Source: an uncultured archaeon
GTDB taxonomy: Archaea; Altiarchaeota; Altiarchaeia; JAFGQM01
Assembly (NCBI GenBank): GCA_964619365.1
Contig: CAZUDQ010000001.1
Location: 18,929 to 82,928 of the forward strand
Direction of reading: 5' to 3'
DNA: 64,000 bases
The notes below the pieces were generated by a model. The model searched no databases. It was not told the DNA's origin and saw only the letters and a list, made by a program, of their open reading frames with translations. The position numbers were made by a program, and so were the translations under genes. Shown one piece after another: positions 8,060 to 51,347 of this stretch. The number at the start of each line of letters is the position of its first letter. Positions within the stretch are counted from its first letter, which is position 1.

Positions 8060-8530
8060 AAGGACTCTAGTCTTTTTAAAATCCGTCGAGCCGCAGACTT
8101 CGCACTCTGAAATATCACAATTGTATTTTTTCTTGCATGCGTTGCACTGGGTCACCCAGGAATATGCATTTGTTATGCCTTTTAGGATTACTTTCTCGTA
8201 GGGCATCTCAAGAATCTTGCATGCATTTTGGATATCGTAATCATCAGTGACAATCGGGACTTTTTCTTCAAACCCAAGGGCAATAACTGATATGTCAGAA
8301 TCCGAAAGAAGGGAAAGAACGCCTTTTTGCCTGAGTTGTTCGCATACAGTTTCAAGGGCTCTGTCCGAAGGCTCTTTTAACTTTAGCTCCCCTGCCTCCT
8401 TTGCAACTTCAAATTTTATTTTAGACTGTGTGTCTTTTAGCTCCTTTGCAATCTGGGGTGTTGTTAAGAATTCTCCTGAAAGGACCTTTTCGCGTGCGTT
8501 GATTATTCCTGATGCGTCAAGTACTTTCAT
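8051..8530 (-). CDS. nob1: Nob1 endoribonuclease (PIN + Zn ribbon)
   Basis: VLDASG, LSDSD, TDDYDIQN and CxxC...CxxCG. Confidence 0.9.
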   Translation of the reverse strand: MKVLDASGIINAREKVLSGEFLTTPQIAKELKDTQSKIKFEVAKEAGELKLKEPSDRALETVCEQLRQKGVLSLLSDSDISVIALGFEEKVPIVTDDYDIQNACKILEMPYEKVILKGITNAYSWVTQCNACKKKYNCDISECEVCGSTDFKKTRVLLD

Positions 8531-42300: not shown

Positions 42301-43806
42301 TTAGGCTACTGTAAATGGATTCTCACCTTCTGCAATAGCTAAAGCGTAGGCCAACTTAGACTTGCTTTGTGCATATAATGTATAGAGTGGCTCGCCGATT
42401 TCAGCCTTTTCCCCAGCTTTTTTGTGCAGGTACATGCCAGCCCGCGGATCCTTTGGACATCCTGCGGTCTTTGCAAGATTTGCGACAAGTGAATTTGAAA
42501 GAGCTGTTATCTTGCCGGATTCTGTTGCAAGTATATCCTTTTTGAACCTGCCGATTGCGATATCAGATGGTTTAATCATCGGGTTTCCACCCTGTATTTT
42601 TATTATCTCGCGCATCTTTTTTTCTGCGGCGCCAGACTCAAGAGCTTCGCGCGCGTCCTTCTCACCGTCTTTGACAGATTTTGCCCCGTCTGAAAACGCC
42701 ATTATTTCTCCTGTCATCATGATACTCTTTTCAGTAAGGTCCATTGGGCCTTGTCCTGCTAGTGCCCACAAAACATCTCTTGCTTCAAGTGCCGGACCTA
42801 TGCCGTTTCCGATTGGTTGTGCCCCTTTTGTGTAGATACAATGGACTTTCATGTTGACATGCTCTCCAAGATTAATAAATTTCTTTCCGAGTTCTTCAGC
42901 CGCCTTTTTTGTGGATATCTTGGCGCCGGGTCCATGAGGTAAATCTATTAAGACGTAGTTGCTTCCGACACTCTTTTTCTTTGAGATTATGCTCGCAAGT
43001 ACCTGTCCTTCGGCATCAATTGAGAGGGGGTATTCGACATGGATTATCTTATCATCTGCCGGGGCAAGGTTGACTGCCCCCCCCCAGACTATGCATCCGC
43101 CTGTTTTATTTACAAATTTCTTTATGTCGCTTGCACCATAGGAAACCGGGCACAATACTTCCATAGTATCTGCAGTTCCTGCAGGAGAGGTTATCGCACG
43201 TGATGAAGTCTTTGGCATCTTAAGCCCTAATGAGGTGCATATCGGAACAACCATCATTGTCGTCCTGTTTCCAGGTATTCCCCCGATGCAATGCTTGTCT
43301 ATTACCTTACCTTCAAATTCTAACTTGTCTCCTGTTTCCACCATGGCAACAGTAAGTTTGCATGTCTCTTTCCATGTGTAACCATGTATGGCAGCTGCCG
43401 TTACAAAGGCACTTAGCTCGATGTCTGAGAGCTTGTCATCGACAATGTCGCTTACAATCGTAGTTATTTCGTATTCAGAGAGTTCTTCACCGAATATCTT
43501 TTTTCTTATGAATCCGATAGACTCTGGTTTTGGGCGCGGACAAACATAGACTTGTGACTTTGGTGAAAGCTTCATCTCACAGGCTAGTTCGTTAAATACG
43601 CCGACTTCCCCCGCTGAGACCATGGTATCGGTTATATCAACAATTCCAACTTCGCCAAGGTCACATGACTTGCTACGGGAAAGACTGACACGGTCACCAA
43701 CGTGTATGCCTAAGTGCTCGCAGTCTATCTCATGTAAAAGTACTATGCTGTTTCCTGCATCAATATCTATAGACCGTACTTTAAGGCGTCCTAAACTGTT
43801 GTCCAT
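42301..43806 (-). CDS. deoA: AMP phosphorylase
   Basis: DKHCIGGIPGNRTT, KTSSRAITSPAGTAD, WGGAVNLAPADD, GNGIGPALEA. Confidence 0.95.
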   Translation of the reverse strand: MDNSLGRLKVRSIDIDAGNSIVLLHEIDCEHLGIHVGDRVSLSRSKSCDLGEVGIVDITDTMVSAGEVGVFNELACEMKLSPKSQVYVCPRPKPESIGFIRKKIFGEELSEYEITTIVSDIVDDKLSDIELSAFVTAAAIHGYTWKETCKLTVAMVETGDKLEFEGKVIDKHCIGGIPGNRTTMMVVPICTSLGLKMPKTSSRAITSPAGTADTMEVLCPVSYGASDIKKFVNKTGGCIVWGGAVNLAPADDKIIHVEYPLSIDAEGQVLASIISKKKSVGSNYVLIDLPHGPGAKISTKKAAEELGKKFINLGEHVNMKVHCIYTKGAQPIGNGIGPALEARDVLWALAGQGPMDLTEKSIMMTGEIMAFSDGAKSVKDGEKDAREALESGAAEKKMREIIKIQGGNPMIKPSDIAIGRFKKDILATESGKITALSNSLVANLAKTAGCPKDPRAGMYLHKKAGEKAEIGEPLYTLYAQSKSKLAYALAIAEGENPFTVA

Positions 43807-43814
43807 TGTCTTAT

Positions 43815-45083
43815 TTAGGCTTTAACTACGCCCCATTTTTTTATTGCAACGGAAAGCTCGCTGTTTGTTTTTGCAGCTTCTTTTAAGGTCTTGCCATCGG
43901 CTACTGCCTGAGCTGCCTGCCTTAGTGAGGCCGCGCCTGCTATTGTCCCACCGGGATGTCCATGCACCCCACCACCTGCCTGTAGGATTATATCCTTTCC
44001 AAGATATTTGACAATTGCCGAAACGTGACCTGCATGAAGACCACCAGAACAAACTGGGAATGTTGATTTCATCTTGAGCCAGTCCTGGTCAAGAACATCG
44101 CCATGCTCTTTAATCTCTTGTTCTGAAATCTCATTTTTAATGTCGATTATCTCCTGCTTCCCACCCTGCATCTTGCCGACTATAGTTCCGATGTGAAGCT
44201 GGTCCATCCCGACCATCCTTAAGCATTTTGCATAGGCAAGCATTGTGATTCCGTGCTTTGGATTGCGGGTGAGCATTGCATGTCCTGCCCGGTGTGCATG
44301 TATCACAAGGTCAAGACCTACGTCTCTTAGCGTCTGGAGACCAGAAAATCCGCATGTGAGAACGTCAACCATGACATATTCACCGCCCGTTTCCTTTACG
44401 AATTCTGCGCGCTTTATCATCTCGTTTGTTTCAGCAGTCACATTTGGCATGTAAATCTTCTTTTCGCCGGTTTCTTTCTCTGCTTTATCCCTAAGCTTAA
44501 GGACTTCGGGGATGCGCTTGTAGAATGGATTAAATGTCTGGGAAGTTAAGTTCTCATCATCTTTTACTATGTCAAGACCGCCTGCCCAGGCCTCATATGC
44601 CACTTTTGCATGCTCTTTATAGTTAAGTCCTACTTTTGGCTTGACGATTGTTCCCACAAGCGGCCGGTCATAGACTTTAAGGAGCTTTCTTACGCCAGGT
44701 ATTCCAAACTTTGGCCCGGGAAAGCTCTTTATCATCTTTTGGGGAAAGCCAATATCAAGAAGGCGCAGATTGCTAACAGCTTTCATTCCATAGATGTTTC
44801 CGGCAATTGATGACCAGATTTCAGGCATCGAACCTTTTTCGAAAAGCTTGAGTGGGTATGCAATCTTTGTTGTTTTCTTTTTTTTATCAATTTCAAAAAC
44901 ACGCGCCGAAAGCTCCTCTTTTGTCTCTTTAGAAAGAGTAGTAAGTTCTGTCCAGGTACCTATGCTTGATTCTGCAGCAACTTCCTCGCATGCTTTTTCA
45001 AGCGTTATCCCGTTTGGCTCAAGATAATATTTGCAGATTATATCAGTTTCTGCAGGCTTATATTTTAAATCTAGGTAGGTCAT
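43815..45083 (-). CDS. rbcL: Form III ribulose-1,5-bisphosphate carboxylase
   Basis: AESSIGTW, GTIVKPKVG, catalytic KDDEN, HAHRA, loop 6 GKMQG, SGGLH, GGGVHGHP. Confidence 0.96.
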   Translation of the reverse strand: MTYLDLKYKPAETDIICKYYLEPNGITLEKACEEVAAESSIGTWTELTTLSKETKEELSARVFEIDKKKKTTKIAYPLKLFEKGSMPEIWSSIAGNIYGMKAVSNLRLLDIGFPQKMIKSFPGPKFGIPGVRKLLKVYDRPLVGTIVKPKVGLNYKEHAKVAYEAWAGGLDIVKDDENLTSQTFNPFYKRIPEVLKLRDKAEKETGEKKIYMPNVTAETNEMIKRAEFVKETGGEYVMVDVLTCGFSGLQTLRDVGLDLVIHAHRAGHAMLTRNPKHGITMLAYAKCLRMVGMDQLHIGTIVGKMQGGKQEIIDIKNEISEQEIKEHGDVLDQDWLKMKSTFPVCSGGLHAGHVSAIVKYLGKDIILQAGGGVHGHPGGTIAGAASLRQAAQAVADGKTLKEAAKTNSELSVAIKKWGVVKA

Positions 45084-45175
45084 TTTGTCTAAACTGTATT
45101 TGGGCTTTTAGTTACACAAATATTAGCAGGACTATGATAAAAGGATTTTTCAAATATTGTTAAATAGATACACTT

Positions 45176-45844
45176 TCACTTAAACATTCTGGTGTATTCT
45201 CTTATGTCATCGGATGAAAGCGAGCATCCTGAACGTTTTAAGGATACAAGACAGGCTTCAAACATATGACGGGGTTCGGCTGAAAAATATTTAGCCAGTA
45301 TACCTTTCTCAAAACAAACTGCAACAAGTTCGGCAGACCGTATTATCTCAACTCCTTTACAGTACTTTTGAAACTCTTTTGCTCGCGCAAAATCCATTGT
45401 TATGTGACGATGGAGCCTGTGGTGAAGAAGTGAAAGCAAGTCTTTTGGCTGCTCAATAAGATAACGCAGGGTTCGCTCGTCCATCAAAAGAACGTCCCCG
45501 TCGTTTGCCAGAGCAAGTGCCTCGGCCTCCCCTTGTTGGATTATGTGAAGCTCTTTGCCTTTTGCCCTGTAAACTGAATTGGCGACATCCATTATCCCAT
45601 AGACCTCTTTTTTATCTGGAGTCTCAAGCTTTAGGATACCTGAATCAAGCATTGCGCGAAACTTCATCGGACCCATGAGATGATTTCCGCGTTTTTCGGG
45701 AGTTGTTATTATTTCTTCAACGACGGCAGGAGTTATTATGAAATCGGCATATTTTGATAGTTCAAACACCAGAGGTGTCATGCAATTAATGGAAAGTGAG
45801 ATTAGTGCGCCTGAATCGCATATCACTCTTTTTTTCTCAGTCAT
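45176..45844 (-). CDS. PIN-domain protein (DUF3368/COG2405-like)
   Basis: ICDSGALI, V.EE, QGEAEALALA and LLMDERTLR acidic PIN residues. Confidence 0.75.
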   Translation of the reverse strand: MTEKKRVICDSGALISLSINCMTPLVFELSKYADFIITPAVVEEIITTPEKRGNHLMGPMKFRAMLDSGILKLETPDKKEVYGIMDVANSVYRAKGKELHIIQQGEAEALALANDGDVLLMDERTLRYLIEQPKDLLSLLHHRLHRHITMDFARAKEFQKYCKGVEIIRSAELVAVCFEKGILAKYFSAEPRHMFEACLVSLKRSGCSLSSDDIREYTRMFK

Positions 45845-46409
45845 CTTTTATGTTAAAAATGCGCCTTGCGCTCTCAAATCGTTTTGCGTTTGACCTAGAC
45901 CCTTTTAGCTCGTGGATTTTTGTCGTGCCAACATATGATGAGACTTCGGAGGGCTCGGCGCCCGTCATTTCTGATGCGCGCCTTACTGAAAAACCCTTGG
46001 AATAAAGGCTTGCGGCTTTCTTGATTTTTGCCTTATCAATGAGGGTGTCCTCGAAATTGCCTTCTTTTCTGTCAAGGTCAACAACCCGGTTTTCTGCATC
46101 TTCAAGAGCAAGAAGAGTCTGCTTTTTTGGACCCGCAAGTGCTCGCTTTAAGTCGTTTATTATCTGGTCATAAAACTTTTCTGGCAAGCCCTTGTAGTGG
46201 ACTTTTGTCATTAGTTTTGAAAGGGAGTAGTCAAGGAGACCTATAAGCATAAGCTCCCTATGGCTTTCGACAGCCGCCTCTGCGCTTGCCTCTTCTGAAA
46301 CACGACGCAGGGCAAGGTCTTCTCTTGCCTCAATTGCGATTATCGAGTCCTCAATATATTTTTTGAGGCTTATATAAGCGTCATTTGATTCAGTTTTTGG
46401 TTGAGGCAT
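45837..46409 (-). CDS. Helical protein with C-terminal UPF0175-like HTH
   Basis: AASLYSKGFSVRRASEMTG HTH. ATG 46409 lies 2 nt after the upstream stop (alternative ATG 46424); 8-bp overlap with the PIN gene. Confidence 0.7.
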   Translation of the reverse strand: MPQPKTESNDAYISLKKYIEDSIIAIEAREDLALRRVSEEASAEAAVESHRELMLIGLLDYSLSKLMTKVHYKGLPEKFYDQIINDLKRALAGPKKQTLLALEDAENRVVDLDRKEGNFEDTLIDKAKIKKAASLYSKGFSVRRASEMTGAEPSEVSSYVGTTKIHELKGSRSNAKRFESARRIFNIKDD

Positions 46410-46411
46410 TT

Positions 46412-47293
46412 TTAGAGTTCCCATGCGAATTTTTCCTTTAAGACTTCATATGCCATATACGGCGGGATTATTCCGTCTTCGGTTACAATTATGTCAATGT
46501 ACTCTGGCGGCGTAAAGTCAAATGCTGGGTTCCACATCTTAACTCCGCGCATCGGCGGGCGGATTTCAGCATTGTCACGCTCTTCAACTTCAATCAGGCT
46601 GCCGTCCATCGTCTGGGGTGAGAATTTTATCGTCTCGCAGGCAACAATAACTGGAATATTTGCCTCGTGAGCAAGAGTTGCAATCTGGCTTGTTCCAATC
46701 TTATTTGCAACAGCGCCGTTTGCAGCAACCGTGTCGGCGCCGATTACTACTTTATCGATGTCAAAATGCTTAATCGCAAAGCGGACTGCAGAGTCTACAA
46801 TCATCGTCACATCAACTTTGCTTTTTGCAAGGGCTGCAGCTGTCAAATAGCCTTGGTTTCTCGGGCGCGTTTCAGTGCAGATGGCTTTAATCTTTTTTGT
46901 CTTTGATGCCTCGACTATGACGTCAATTGCCGCAGTCGAGTTGCAGTGCGTAAGAATCGTGTCGCCTTTTTCAACCCTTTTTGCGCCGTTCTTTGCTACT
47001 TTTTCAAGGGCAGCTTCCTGCTCTTTTATGAACTTATCGATTATTTTTGGAAGCTTATCTTGTGGATTTTCCTTAGACAAGTAAACACAATAGTCAACCG
47101 CGTTTGGAAGCGAGACTGCAGTCGGACGCGCCGCCTTTAAGACTTTTGCAGCTTTAAGGAAATCGCGTGAGAAGTTTTTTCCAGAGTAGTCTCTCGCATA
47201 CTTGCTAAGGGAGTCTGCAGCGGATGTCGCAATCTTTAGTGCGCCACGAATCTCCATTGACTTGATTTTCCGGGCAGTAGTTTGTGGATCCAA
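46412..47293 (-). CDS. Ribose-1,5-bisphosphate isomerase (eIF-2B-like)
   Basis: MEIRGA, RPTAVSL, THCNS, ETRP, GAD, NKIGT, NPAFDFTP; clustered with rbcL and AMP phosphorylase; TTG start. Confidence 0.92.
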   Translation of the reverse strand: MDPQTTARKIKSMEIRGALKIATSAADSLSKYARDYSGKNFSRDFLKAAKVLKAARPTAVSLPNAVDYCVYLSKENPQDKLPKIIDKFIKEQEAALEKVAKNGAKRVEKGDTILTHCNSTAAIDVIVEASKTKKIKAICTETRPRNQGYLTAAALAKSKVDVTMIVDSAVRFAIKHFDIDKVVIGADTVAANGAVANKIGTSQIATLAHEANIPVIVACETIKFSPQTMDGSLIEVEERDNAEIRPPMRGVKMWNPAFDFTPPEYIDIIVTEDGIIPPYMAYEVLKEKFAWEL

Positions 47294-47351: not shown

Positions 47352-47374
47352 AAAAGTAAGAAAATCTTACTTTT
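47352..47374. promoter_or_regulatory. Perfect inverted repeat AAAAGTAAGA-AAA-TCTTACTTTT, candidate operator
   Basis: 10-bp arms in the divergent intergenic region between the R15P isomerase gene and leuC. Confidence 0.5.
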
Positions 47375-50870: not shown

Positions 50871-51347
50871 ATGGACAAAATAATCAGATTAGACAGAAGA
50901 CATCTTGAAGAGCTTGTACTGATAGATTTTGAGTCCGACCACCAAGGCGACCGGGAAGAAAGAATCACAAAAGCCCAAATGAAAAAGAGGGTCAATGAGC
51001 GTTTTGACTCTTGCCATGAAATTTTCTTCGGGCTTAGACATGGGAAAGAACTAGTCGGTTATGTGACACTTAAGCCTTTCTTTCCAGGTTATAAACACTG
51101 TGAAATCTATTGGCTTTCAGTAAAAAAGAGAGTTCAGGGACTGGGTGTGGGGACAACACTAATAAGATTCATTGAAAACTACGCAAAGAAGCATGGCTTT
51201 AGAAAAGCATTCCTTTATACTGGAAAGAACATGAAGCTCACAAGAGGATTCTATGAAAAAATGGGATACTCCTTAATCAATGAATTCCCGGATTATTATT
51301 CTTCTGGGAGGAACACTACTGCAGTTTTATATGCCAACTCACTCTAA
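50871..51347 (+). CDS. GNAT family N-acetyltransferase
   Basis: Motif A QGLGVGT and motif B FYEKMGY. Confidence 0.9.
   Translation: MDKIIRLDRRHLEELVLIDFESDHQGDREERITKAQMKKRVNERFDSCHEIFFGLRHGKELVGYVTLKPFFPGYKHCEIYWLSVKKRVQGLGVGTTLIRFIENYAKKHGFRKAFLYTGKNMKLTRGFYEKMGYSLINEFPDYYSSGRNTTAVLYANSL

Follow-up and report, generated by a model that had tools for sequence, protein, structure and literature searches.

On the minus strand of the 64,000-nucleotide stretch of archaeal DNA analysed here (the window), two overlapping, conserved open reading frames lie between e2b2, the gene for ribose-1,5-bisphosphate isomerase, and the genes for type III RuBisCO (rbcL) and AMP phosphorylase (deoA). They encode a PIN protein and a helical partner, and the pair does not appear to be an addiction module. 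The explanation we prefer, to which we give about even chances, is that the two proteins are the subunits of a nuclease module of UPF0175-DUF3368, VapBC-type ancestry, now a fixed and vertically inherited pair of DPANN archaea, which in the window's lineage would act as a gated RNase co-expressed with the RuBisCO pathway.

Toxin-antitoxin modules are regarded as mobile, dispensable and patchy in their distribution, and the pair described here appears to be one of the UPF0175/DUF3368 type that gained extra domains and became near-universal and single-copy in one DPANN phylum. Nucleotides cannot be made by DPANN archaea, for which the type III RuBisCO route is the presumed way of burning ribose that they scavenge; the AMP (pentose-bisphosphate) pathway of deoA, e2b2 and rbcL, as described, needs only these three enzymes. 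The presence of the pair in the operon of the window's family, together with a tie between partner and isomerase in four families, makes it a testable candidate link from RNA breakdown to the RuBisCO pathway. A full-text literature search joining DPANN, PIN domain and RuBisCO returned nothing on such a pair, and those on DUF3368 and UPF0175 brought up general classifications only.

Gene organization of the cluster

The cluster begins with e2b2 (46412..47293; all genes of the cluster are on the minus strand), whose product matches TIGR00511 (E 2.6e-103; 345.4 bits, the cut-off being 314.1). It is followed by the gene for the 195-aa partner (45837..46424), the gene for the 222-aa PIN protein (45176..45844), rbcL (43815..45083; TIGR03326, E 7.7e-175, 581.8 bits against 497.45) and deoA (42301..43806; TIGR03327, E 5.5e-181, 602.4 bits against 535), so that all three pathway enzymes score above the curated cut-offs. 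An in-frame ATG at 46409 gives a 190-aa version of the partner and lies 2 nt past the e2b2 stop codon (46414..46412), which thus overlaps or abuts the start of the partner gene. The first-pass annotation had described a helical protein of 190 aa starting 2 nt after the isomerase stop, and this holds from the ATG at 46409. It had also seen an overlap with a 222-aa PIN protein and rbcL downstream; in the sequence the two reading frames share 8 nt (ATGACTGA), and rbcL starts 92 nt on, at 45083. The intervening 92-nt spacer (45084..45175) is not conserved, since the same junction is a 1-nt gap or an overlap in relatives L002 and L004.

Partner and PIN reading frames overlap or lie at most 20 nt apart in 26 of 33 loci. 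Both are conserved genes and not chance reading frames, given 47 related loci and a partner family with 762 cluster representatives. A word-based search with the partner gave one relative only, and the extent of the family was revealed through the neighbours of PIN genes and an exhaustive search.

The PIN protein

The AlphaFold model of the PIN protein has a pLDDT of 93.6, and its fold agrees with the PIN assignment made from the letters alone. In Foldseek the top matches were Nob1 (2lcq, E 9.7e-4) and then SSO1118 (2mdt), while nearly all of the best 40 matches in the VIA-align wide search were PIN proteins, among them 1y82 (Z 11.4), 2mdt (Z 9.9) and VapCs at Z 9-10; the solved VapBC chains 6sd6, 3zvk and 4chg share the PIN fold at Z 9.4-9.8. 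SSO1118, a top structural match that ranks second in both searches, is a solved COG2405 structure according to excerpts of PMC5499597.

An acidic set made up of D10, E44, E106, E108, D122 and E123 is invariant in 43/43 members that are 25-65% identical, with E106 and E108 forming the GEAE motif. D10, GEAE and DE had been pointed out before on the basis of the window alone and were borne out, whereas the residues given as E42/43 are really E43/E44.

Homology to COG2405/DUF3368 extends over the whole protein. When aligned with 9 bona fide DUF3368 proteins of the window's phylum, each of which matches PF11848 above its cut-off, the family reached 97.8% in hhalign (E 1.2e-12, 166 columns). Some 40 aa inserted at about residues 131-165 were unmatched in that alignment and set the window protein apart from classical DUF3368 members, single-domain proteins of about 150-180 aa, which are 149-176 aa long as aligned in pairs of the window's phylum and 153-176 aa among the members aligned here. 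Pfam models reach neither window protein. The PIN protein had no direct Pfam or NCBIfam match (PF11848 gave none at E <= 1), PF11848 found no match at E <= 10 among 20 members of the PIN family, and genome-wide scans with PF11848 and PF03683 matched neither gene. Precomputed PF11848 labels are nevertheless carried by 22 of 25 PIN relatives and by 74-77% of the members in Atlas clusters. In PDB sequences, the profiles of the two families matched nothing beyond chance level, with Elongin-C and designed proteins among the rows.

The Foldseek result raises the idea that the pair replaces a missing essential PIN enzyme, either Nob1 (16S rRNA 3' maturation) or a HARP-type protein-only RNase P. Besides the top match to Nob1 2lcq at E 9.7e-4, HARP 7f3e scores Z 8.4 and the EndA gene adjoins the family in 18 loci. 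VapC-type chains, however, score equal or higher, the sequence homology is to COG2405, and the PIN_6 model does not match the PIN protein. The genome has a separate, canonical Nob1-type PIN_6 gene of its own (window 8267..8524; 59.5 bits, where the cut-off is 27), and archaeal RNase P RNA was found in 5/5 genomes tested. In 3 of these, the window's genome with 101.6 bits among them, it exceeds the gathering score. The Nob1-type gene and the RNase P RNA in practice rule out such a replacement, which we consider hardly credible.

The partner protein

The partner is modelled as an all-helical protein (pLDDT 91.1) of two domains, an acidic N-domain of five helices (about residues 13-121) and a basic, UPF0175-like C-domain (about residues 128-190); the pI is 5.3 over residues 1-125 and 9.9 over residues 126-195. 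Y66, L68, K70, Y141, G144, S146, G166 and R182 are invariant. Residues 130-190 align with 9 proteins of the UPF0175 type, whose genes precede classical DUF3368 genes of the window's phylum, at 86.9% in hhalign (E 4.2e-6, 61 columns), which is moderate support for the UPF0175-like HTH that had been noticed at the end of the protein. With the 97.8% obtained for the PIN protein, it also upholds the proposed relation to UPF0175 + DUF3368-PIN modules.

Direct Pfam and NCBIfam scans with the partner gave two chance-level Pfam matches (E about 0.08), neither of them UPF0175; PF03683 matches 7 of 31 partner orthologues weakly (best E 2.6e-4) and the window protein not at E <= 1. No Foldseek match was found at E <= 0.001, and the best VIA-align wide score (Z 7.9, with CheA P1 and BRIC1) is what helical bundles reach generically.

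UPF0175 proteins are typically small, single-domain and about 85-100 aa long. Classical ones of the window's phylum are 84-103 aa long as aligned, compared with 195 aa here, and the difference lies in a helical bundle added at the N-terminus, about 125 aa long and kept across the whole family. The first-pass annotation was right to call the two proteins enlarged (195 and 222 aa against 84-103 and 149-176 aa). Enlargement is not special to the RuBisCO operon, though, for the enlarged form defines a DPANN-wide family found mostly away from pathway genes.

In excerpts of PMC5499597 and PMC2701414, COG2405/DUF3368 (PF11848) and COG2886/UPF0175 (PF03683) are described as predicted VapBC-like toxin-antitoxin pairs. 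The window pair resembles them in its homology over the whole PIN protein and the partner's C-terminal 61 columns, in its gene order with the partner first and overlapping reading frames, and in the common motifs D-S-S-x-L-I, V-x-x-E, GEAE and D-E-R and a C-terminal G-I-L ... G-C-S-L-S segment.

Model of the complex and natural fusions

The complex prediction that had been suggested for the pair supports an association of the two proteins. All 3 runs gave a score of 0.89, while the best-scoring of 3 controls had 0.00; 58 of 80 solved complexes attain the mark used for this score, as do 2 of 110 mismatched pairs. At least 90% of contacts are common to the runs, and the partner pLDDT is at least 81. 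Part of the score may reflect likeness to VapBC, since VapBC-like complexes are already solved. In the model, the basic C-terminal domain of the partner (residues 141-192) covers the catalytic face of the PIN protein, with contacts at PIN residues 44, 99-106 and 122-126. An invariant patch of the N-terminal bundle, Y-x-L-x-K...K-x-H, lies outside the modelled interface. A partner C-terminal region sitting over the acidic active site, as predicted, would be a feature shared with VapBC complexes, but the partner is not an antitoxin of the AbrB, RHH or Phd type.

UPF0175/COG2886 has a predicted HTH motif according to the available text of PMC2701414, and the partner could then be chiefly a DNA-binding transcription regulator of e2b2 or of the pathway operon, with the PIN protein as co-repressor. 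The basic C-domain (pI 9.9) and the tie of the partner gene to e2b2 in 24/32 genomes would fit such a role. In the predicted complex, however, the PIN protein buries the HTH-like residues 141-167, which would not be free to bind DNA, and other phyla show no linkage of the pair to the pathway. The perfect 10-nt inverted repeat AAAAGTAAGA-N3-TCTTACTTTT (47352..47374), which had been suggested as a target for binding assays, is the sole palindrome upstream of e2b2 and a solo copy of a genome-wide palindrome with 36 sites in the 1.2-Mb genome (the reversed control pattern has 0), and a comparable repeat is absent upstream of e2b2 in 5/5 related loci. Its number of sites and its absence from related loci rule it out as an operator of the operon, and we regard the regulator role as improbable.

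An association of the two proteins is also in keeping with their natural fusions. Among the best 150 representatives of the partner family, 5 are partner-PIN fusions of 380-429 aa. For P0132, one of these, the fusion was verified by a match of residues 188-403 to the PIN family at 99.8% (E 4.9e-30). Fused toxin-antitoxins and autoinhibited enzymes with a sensor domain are known, for example the CapRel-type fused systems. The existence of natural single-chain partner-PIN forms is a likeness to these systems, with which the pair has no sequence relation, and no defence context was seen for it. A partner-PIN fusion would work by conformational gating and not by loss of a labile antitoxin.

Distribution and copy number

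The pair is present as a single copy in the window's own genome. Among 61 genomes of the window's phylum, the PIN gene was found in 30, the partner gene in 32 and both in 28, and in a second DPANN phylum the PIN gene is carried by 166 of 201 genomes, compared with 173 of 201 for the universal EndA. The five-gene cluster is confined to the window's family, f1 (8 genomes). In the other families the PIN gene is away from both e2b2 and the partner gene, and in 20/20 non-f1 genomes of the phylum with both genes the two are on different contigs. The two genes can thus be unlinked or fused, which sets them apart from the COG2405/DUF3368 and COG2886/UPF0175 pairs, as do their single copy, their near-universal presence in one DPANN phylum and their housekeeping or metabolic, not mobile, contexts. 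This tolerance of both splitting and fusion suggests that a gated RNase does some job in the cell.

These observations bear on whether a classical, mobile type II VapBC-like toxin-antitoxin pair, serving addiction or defence, landed in the operon by chance. It would account for the homology to COG2886-COG2405 pairs, predicted to be toxin-antitoxin modules in excerpts of PMC5499597 and PMC2701414, for the antitoxin-first order with its 8-nt overlap and for a partner that covers the active site in the model. But the genes are single-copy and consistent by lineage, they can sit on different contigs or be fused, and their composition is host-like (GC 0.43-0.44 for the pair genes, 0.437 for the window). 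No relative of the pair was found among 53 candidate viral stretches and no plasmid match was obtained. Bona fide DUF3368 genes of the same phylum offer a contrast, being patchy, with 0-4 copies, in 16/61 genomes and 0/8 f1 genomes. We therefore disfavour a chance landing as very unlikely. The window pair is neither mobile nor multicopy, unlike VapBC modules, and the term "domesticated" chosen in the first-pass annotation suits a single-copy, vertically distributed pair. Behaviour as a mobile classical toxin-antitoxin pair, which it had set against its own proposal, was looked for, and the pair proved to be lineage-consistent.

Linkage to the RuBisCO pathway

Linkage of the pair to rbcL and deoA, as proposed from the window, is partial. 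In f1 the five genes are on the same strand and tightly packed, with the order e2b2-partner-PIN-(rbcL)-deoA in 7/7 of the closest loci; L003 and L006 have no rbcL between the PIN gene and deoA, and in L002 and L004 each of the five genes overlaps the next or is separated from it by 1 nt. The pair is thus packed between genes of a pathway that many genomes have without it. Beyond f1, it is the partner gene that keeps the connection, since it lies directly 3' of e2b2 in 24 of 32 genomes, belonging to families f1, f3, f6 and f8 (the adjacency was inspected in L052 and L055), and the two reading frames overlap or abut across all four families, where the partner is only about 28% identical. Outside the window's phylum, on the other hand, a pathway gene was found within 7 kb of the pair in 0/40 loci (L008-L047).

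Co-occurrence with RuBisCO, the other tie that had been proposed, is modest and not obligate. PIN and RuBisCO genes are associated with an odds ratio of 4.0 over 201 genomes, a value uncorrected for relatedness or genome completeness, compared with 2.0 for EndA as a control; within EndA-positive genomes the PIN association is 3.2, and these values are equally uncorrected. Against this stand the exceptions. Of the 31 genomes in the window's phylum that have no PIN gene, 24 carry RuBisCO, e2b2 also occurs without the pair, and in the second phylum RuBisCO was missing from 49 of the 166 genomes with a PIN gene.

Possible role of the pair

Under the preferred explanation, the pair would descend from UPF0175-DUF3368 (COG2886-COG2405) VapBC-type toxin-antitoxin pairs that became single-copy and vertically inherited in DPANN archaea. 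The partner may gate or inhibit an active, Mg-dependent RNase, and its five-helix N-terminal bundle could serve as a sensor or adaptor domain. In f1 the module is probably co-transcribed within e2b2-partner-PIN-rbcL-deoA, in which case its dose would go along with that of the AMP (pentose-bisphosphate) pathway; the 9 sequencing runs listed were all DNA of salt-lake or other metagenomes, with no RNA run among them. Regulated RNA cleavage or turnover, coupled in the window's phylum to the salvage of ribose from nucleotides, would be the most likely role. PIN endonucleases yield oligonucleotides and not NMPs, which counts against a direct feeding of NMPs into the pathway. The module may instead act upstream of it, with other nucleases converting its RNA fragments to NMPs, or it might itself be tuned by the pathway.

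A more far-reaching proposal, which we think rather unlikely, is that the pair is a "metabolic valve" derived from a toxin-antitoxin. Here the N-terminal bundle would sense AMP, R15P or RuBP, or would bind the translationally coupled R15P isomerase, and would thereby switch the PIN RNase. By opening and closing the RNase, the bundle would match RNA breakdown to the capacity for nucleotide salvage through RuBisCO. If true, such a valve would be a core mechanism linking RNA turnover to carbon and energy metabolism in nucleotide-scavenging DPANN archaea.

The genomic neighbourhood elsewhere suggests a plainer role, which we hold possible, if less probable than the preferred explanation, namely that of a housekeeping nuclease of RNA processing or decay with a specificity or regulatory subunit, for which the position in f1 and the adjacency to e2b2 would be inherited gene order with no functional tie to RuBisCO. 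The DPANN-wide family mostly adjoins EndA (18 loci) and a RimI-like GNAT (30 loci), and its other neighbours include ProRS, DNA ligase, TBP and the proteasome alpha subunit, a setting of information-processing genes. The proteasome alpha gene also flanks the partner in 3/3 non-f1 loci examined, so the adjacency to e2b2 could be inherited housekeeping synteny. A prevalence close to that of EndA is what a core gene would show, and the genomes in which PIN occurs without RuBisCO, or RuBisCO and e2b2 without the pair, agree with it. What this role leaves aside is that the overlap or abutment of e2b2 and partner persists in four families despite the low identity of the partner, that the five genes of L002 and L004 are so closely packed, and that the association with RuBisCO, though uncorrected for relatedness, exceeds that of the EndA control and is retained within EndA-positive genomes.

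As a separate observation on these neighbours, the window itself contains a GNAT gene (50871..51347), whose product is 25% identical over 87 residues to the GNAT that follows the PIN gene elsewhere; it is one of three near-tied weak matches in the genome.

Results and Discussion

The PIN protein is encoded within a run of five minus-strand genes arranged head to tail. The ribose-1,5-bisphosphate isomerase gene e2b2 (47293..46412; NCBIfam TIGR00511, 2.6e-103) is followed by two called ORFs, one of 195 aa coding for the partner protein (46424..45837) and one of 222 aa coding for the PIN protein (45844..45176), and then by rbcL for a type III RuBisCO (45083..43815; NCBIfam TIGR03326, 7.7e-175) and deoA for AMP phosphorylase (43806..42301; NCBIfam TIGR03327, 5.5e-181), with all three NCBIfam matches above the curated cut-off. 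Our analysis confirmed the presence of an HTH-type partner and PIN pair between the isomerase and RuBisCO genes, and the 190-aa protein beginning 2 nt after the isomerase stop, as described in the first-pass annotation, is exactly what an in-frame ATG at 46409 gives. The partner and PIN ORFs share 8 nt, ATGACTGA, a 92-nt spacer separates the PIN gene from rbcL, and the GC content of the two genes (0.43-0.44) equals that of the window (0.437).

Pfam and NCBIfam scans returned no match for the PIN protein. Its predicted model, folded with 20 of 25 relatives from a word search (P0007, P0009 and the truncated P0017, P0019 and P0023 were omitted), reached a pLDDT of 93.6. Foldseek placed Nob1 (2lcq, E 9.7e-4) and SSO1118 (2mdt) in the first two ranks, and in a fold search independent of Foldseek PIN proteins occupied nearly all of the top 40 rows, with Z scores of 11.4 for 1y82, 9.9 for 2mdt, 9-10 for VapC chains, 9.0 for Nob1 and 8.4 for HARP. 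Replacement of Nob1 by this protein is unlikely, because the same genome has a canonical Nob1-type PIN_6 gene (window 8267..8524, minus strand; 59.5 bits, ORF of 159 aa). Identity with a protein-only RNase P is also unlikely, because archaeal RNase P RNA was found in all five genomes tested, scoring above the gathering threshold in three of them, the window's own included. The acidic residues that had been noticed in the protein are kept, with D10, E44, E106, E108, D122 and E123 invariant in 43 full-length family members (25-65% identical), and judged from sequence the nuclease site appears intact.

The partner protein gave only two Pfam matches, both at chance level (E about 0.08). Its predicted model is all-helical (pLDDT 91.1), with a five-helix bundle (residues 13-121, pI 5.3) leading into a basic C-terminal region (pI 9.9), and no convincing match to the fold was found among solved structures, the best Z of 7.9 being generic for helical bundles. 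An exhaustive search placed 762 cluster representatives in the partner family, 633 of them at E <= 1e-10, and nearly all are 170-195 aa long and match end to end.

Neither of the window's two genes is matched by Pfam models PF11848 and PF03683, and 7 of 31 partner orthologues match UPF0175, weakly. Since the Pfam models miss these genes, comparison was made with bona fide DUF3368 and UPF0175 members of the window's phylum, where PF11848 matched 24 genes spread over 16 of 61 genomes (0-4 in each); nine of the matching proteins and their nine upstream UPF0175-type genes (84-103 aa as aligned) formed the comparison alignments. In profile-profile searches the PIN family matched bona fide DUF3368 over 166 columns (97.8% probability, E 1.2e-12), and partner residues 130-190 matched the UPF0175-type proteins over 61 columns (86.9%, E 4.2e-6). 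COG2405 (PF11848) has been described as a VapC-group family of potential toxins with a solved structure, 2mdt, and UPF0175 as found only together with it (PMC5499597); COG2886 has been described as a predicted HTH antitoxin (PMC2701414). In terms of homology, therefore, the assignment of the pair to UPF0175 and DUF3368-PIN is correct. Both proteins are also enlarged, as had been claimed, the partner having 195 aa against the 84-103 aa of the upstream UPF0175-type genes and the PIN family carrying an insertion, at roughly residues 131-165, that has no counterpart in bona fide DUF3368.

In 38 of 47 related loci the partner gene immediately precedes the PIN gene, and in three of the nine others the PIN gene is at the end of its contig. 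Of the 33 loci where both ORFs were called, 26 have them overlapping or separated by 20 nt or less. Among the best 150 of the 762 partner representatives, five are natural single-chain fusions of 380-429 aa (P0115, P0125, P0131, P0132 and P0163), with the partner N-terminal and the PIN motifs behind it, and residues 188-403 of P0132 matched the PIN profile (99.8%, E 4.9e-30). Two other long forms, P0129 and P0145, have a low-complexity Asn-rich N-terminal extension ahead of the partner domain. A predicted partner-PIN complex scored 0.89 in all three runs, a mark attained by 58 of 80 complexes of solved structure and by 2 of 110 mismatched pairs, while the best of three controls scored 0.00; at least 90% of contacts agreed between runs, with a partner pLDDT of at least 81. 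Because VapBC-type complexes are solved, part of this score may stem from likeness to them, and we know of no solved UPF0175-COG2405 complex. The modelled interface joins partner residues 141-192, including the family-invariant Y141, G144, S146, G166 and R182, to PIN residues 44, 99-106 and 122-126, which form the catalytic face. The two proteins are thereby predicted to work together, with the partner placed over the nuclease site.

The behaviour of the pair is not that of a mobile toxin-antitoxin pair. There is a single copy in the window's own genome (1.2 Mb, 85% complete), and among 61 genomes of the phylum the PIN gene is present in 30, the partner in 32 and both in 28; the PIN gene occurs without the partner in G013 and as a weak fragment in G018, and the partner without the PIN gene in G008, G020, G038 and G045. 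Sampling of a second DPANN phylum around G083 showed the PIN gene in 166 of 201 genomes, nearly always as a single copy, and the universal tRNA-splicing endonuclease EndA in 173. No relative of the pair was found in 53 candidate viral stretches or in a plasmid collection. In contrast, classical DUF3368 genes in the window's phylum are patchy, multicopy and absent from all eight genomes of the window's own family (f1), a pattern expected for real toxin-antitoxin modules. The term "domesticated" used in the first-pass annotation fits this single-copy distribution, and the view of the pair as a relative of UPF0175-DUF3368 modules that has been enlarged and domesticated is supported. A contig labelled Omnitrophota bacterium (L017) bears an archaeal PIN gene whose product shares 38% identity with that of the window, and its ORF upstream of that gene is identical to the one on Altiarchaeota contig L008; L017 is probably a mis-binned archaeal contig.

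Linkage of the pair to the RuBisCO pathway had also been proposed, and in gene order it held for f1 and, for the partner gene, beyond it, but not for the family as a whole. All seven closest loci (PIN 52-65% identical) have the order e2b2-partner-PIN-(rbcL)-deoA, and by coordinates the arrangement is present in all eight f1 genomes and in no other family; neighbouring genes among the five overlap or have 1 nt between them in L002, and much the same is seen in L004. In L003 and L006 deoA directly follows the PIN gene, with no rbcL between them. The same junction was seen by coordinates in G054 and G060. The sole RuBisCO-like match in the L003 and L006 genomes is on another contig (405 and 329.5 bits, under the type III cut-off), which suggests loss or replacement of the operon copy of rbcL in such f1 relatives. 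Outside f1, the PIN and partner genes are on separate contigs in all 20 genomes of the phylum with both. In 16 genomes of these families the partner nevertheless comes directly after e2b2 on the same strand, bringing this adjacency to 24 of 32 partner-bearing genomes in four families (f1, f3, f6 and f8). The two genes are 2.8 kb apart in G039 and not adjacent in G010, G011, G012, G020, G045, G046 and G047; an ORF check of two junctions showed a 1-nt gap (L055) and a 16-nt overlap (L052). Gene order usually decays unless genes are co-expressed, and since the adjacency is kept at about 28% partner identity between f1 and those families it is probably operonic, although inherited synteny among housekeeping genes is a possible explanation. 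The tie to the salvage genes is therefore real in f1 and, for the partner gene, extends across four families.

In all three non-f1 loci examined the proteasome alpha subunit gene directly follows the partner (L052, L055 and L057, from G052, G005 and G011), with e2b2 preceding it in L052 and L055; an antitoxin-like protein beside a proteasome gene is perhaps worth a look. Lone PIN genes of the phylum in L051 (f8 genome G052) and L012 are divergently adjacent to a TATA-binding protein gene, identified by Pfam in the former and by eye from the translation in the latter. A second, weaker e2b2-family gene in the window's genome (G000:C3:88838-89725; 192.8 bits, under the TIGR00511 cut-off) is probably an MtnA/aIF-2B-like paralogue, and most genomes of the phylum have a second copy of this kind.

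None of e2b2, rbcL and deoA lies within 7 kb of the pair in the other 40 loci. The usual neighbours there, on the opposite strand, are EndA (18 loci) and a 138-aa protein (17 loci); next come the partner, the PIN gene and an overlapping RimI-like GNAT gene (30 loci). Taken as a whole, the family is a fixed module found across DPANN archaea, mostly in contexts other than RuBisCO salvage genes. Because in 30 of 47 loci the GNAT gene follows and often overlaps the PIN gene, the unit in these lineages comprises three genes: partner, PIN and GNAT. The acetyltransferase is about 150 aa long and occurs among L013-L047, often with a 4-55-nt overlap (for example L014:7594-8052 and L024:6139-6588). The conserved 138-aa protein, found between EndA and the partner in L021-L047 (for example L033:2856-3272), has no Pfam or NCBIfam match.

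Co-occurrence with the pathway was assessed through RuBisCO, which is present in 52 of the 61 genomes of the window's phylum (28 of 30 PIN-positive and 24 of 31 PIN-negative), and 32 genomes of other lineages, themselves reached via the PIN gene, gave a RuBisCO-like match in 31, over the cut-off in 25. In the unbiased 201-genome sample of the second phylum, RuBisCO was found in 117 PIN-positive and 13 PIN-negative genomes and was absent from 49 and 22, respectively. On raw counts that ignore relatedness and completeness, the odds ratio is 4.0 for PIN and RuBisCO against 2.0 for the EndA control, and 3.2 among EndA-positive genomes. The association is modest, with clearly no dependence either way. 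Overall the first-pass interpretation is partly supported; that the pair might degrade RNA to supply NMPs to AMP phosphorylase, or might regulate the pathway by ligand sensing, are hypotheses.

A perfect 10-nt palindrome upstream of e2b2 (47352-47374, AAAAGTAAGA-N3-TCTTACTTTT) was considered as an operator of the operon and rejected: we found no evidence for this role, AGTAAGA-N3-TCTTACT has 36 sites in the 1.2-Mb genome against none for a reversed control pattern, and the region upstream of e2b2 has no comparable repeat in any of five related loci. The palindrome also occurs on contigs C1, C3, C4, C6, C7, C10, C11, C13 and C15 of this genome. In about 11 places paired copies 71-84 nt apart bracket a conserved element of about 60 nt, in which aragorn detected no tRNA. 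The element has two hairpins with stems that vary compensatorily (for example CTCGG/CCGAG vs CTCCG/CGGAG), and it resembles a family of small RNAs or miniature repeats.
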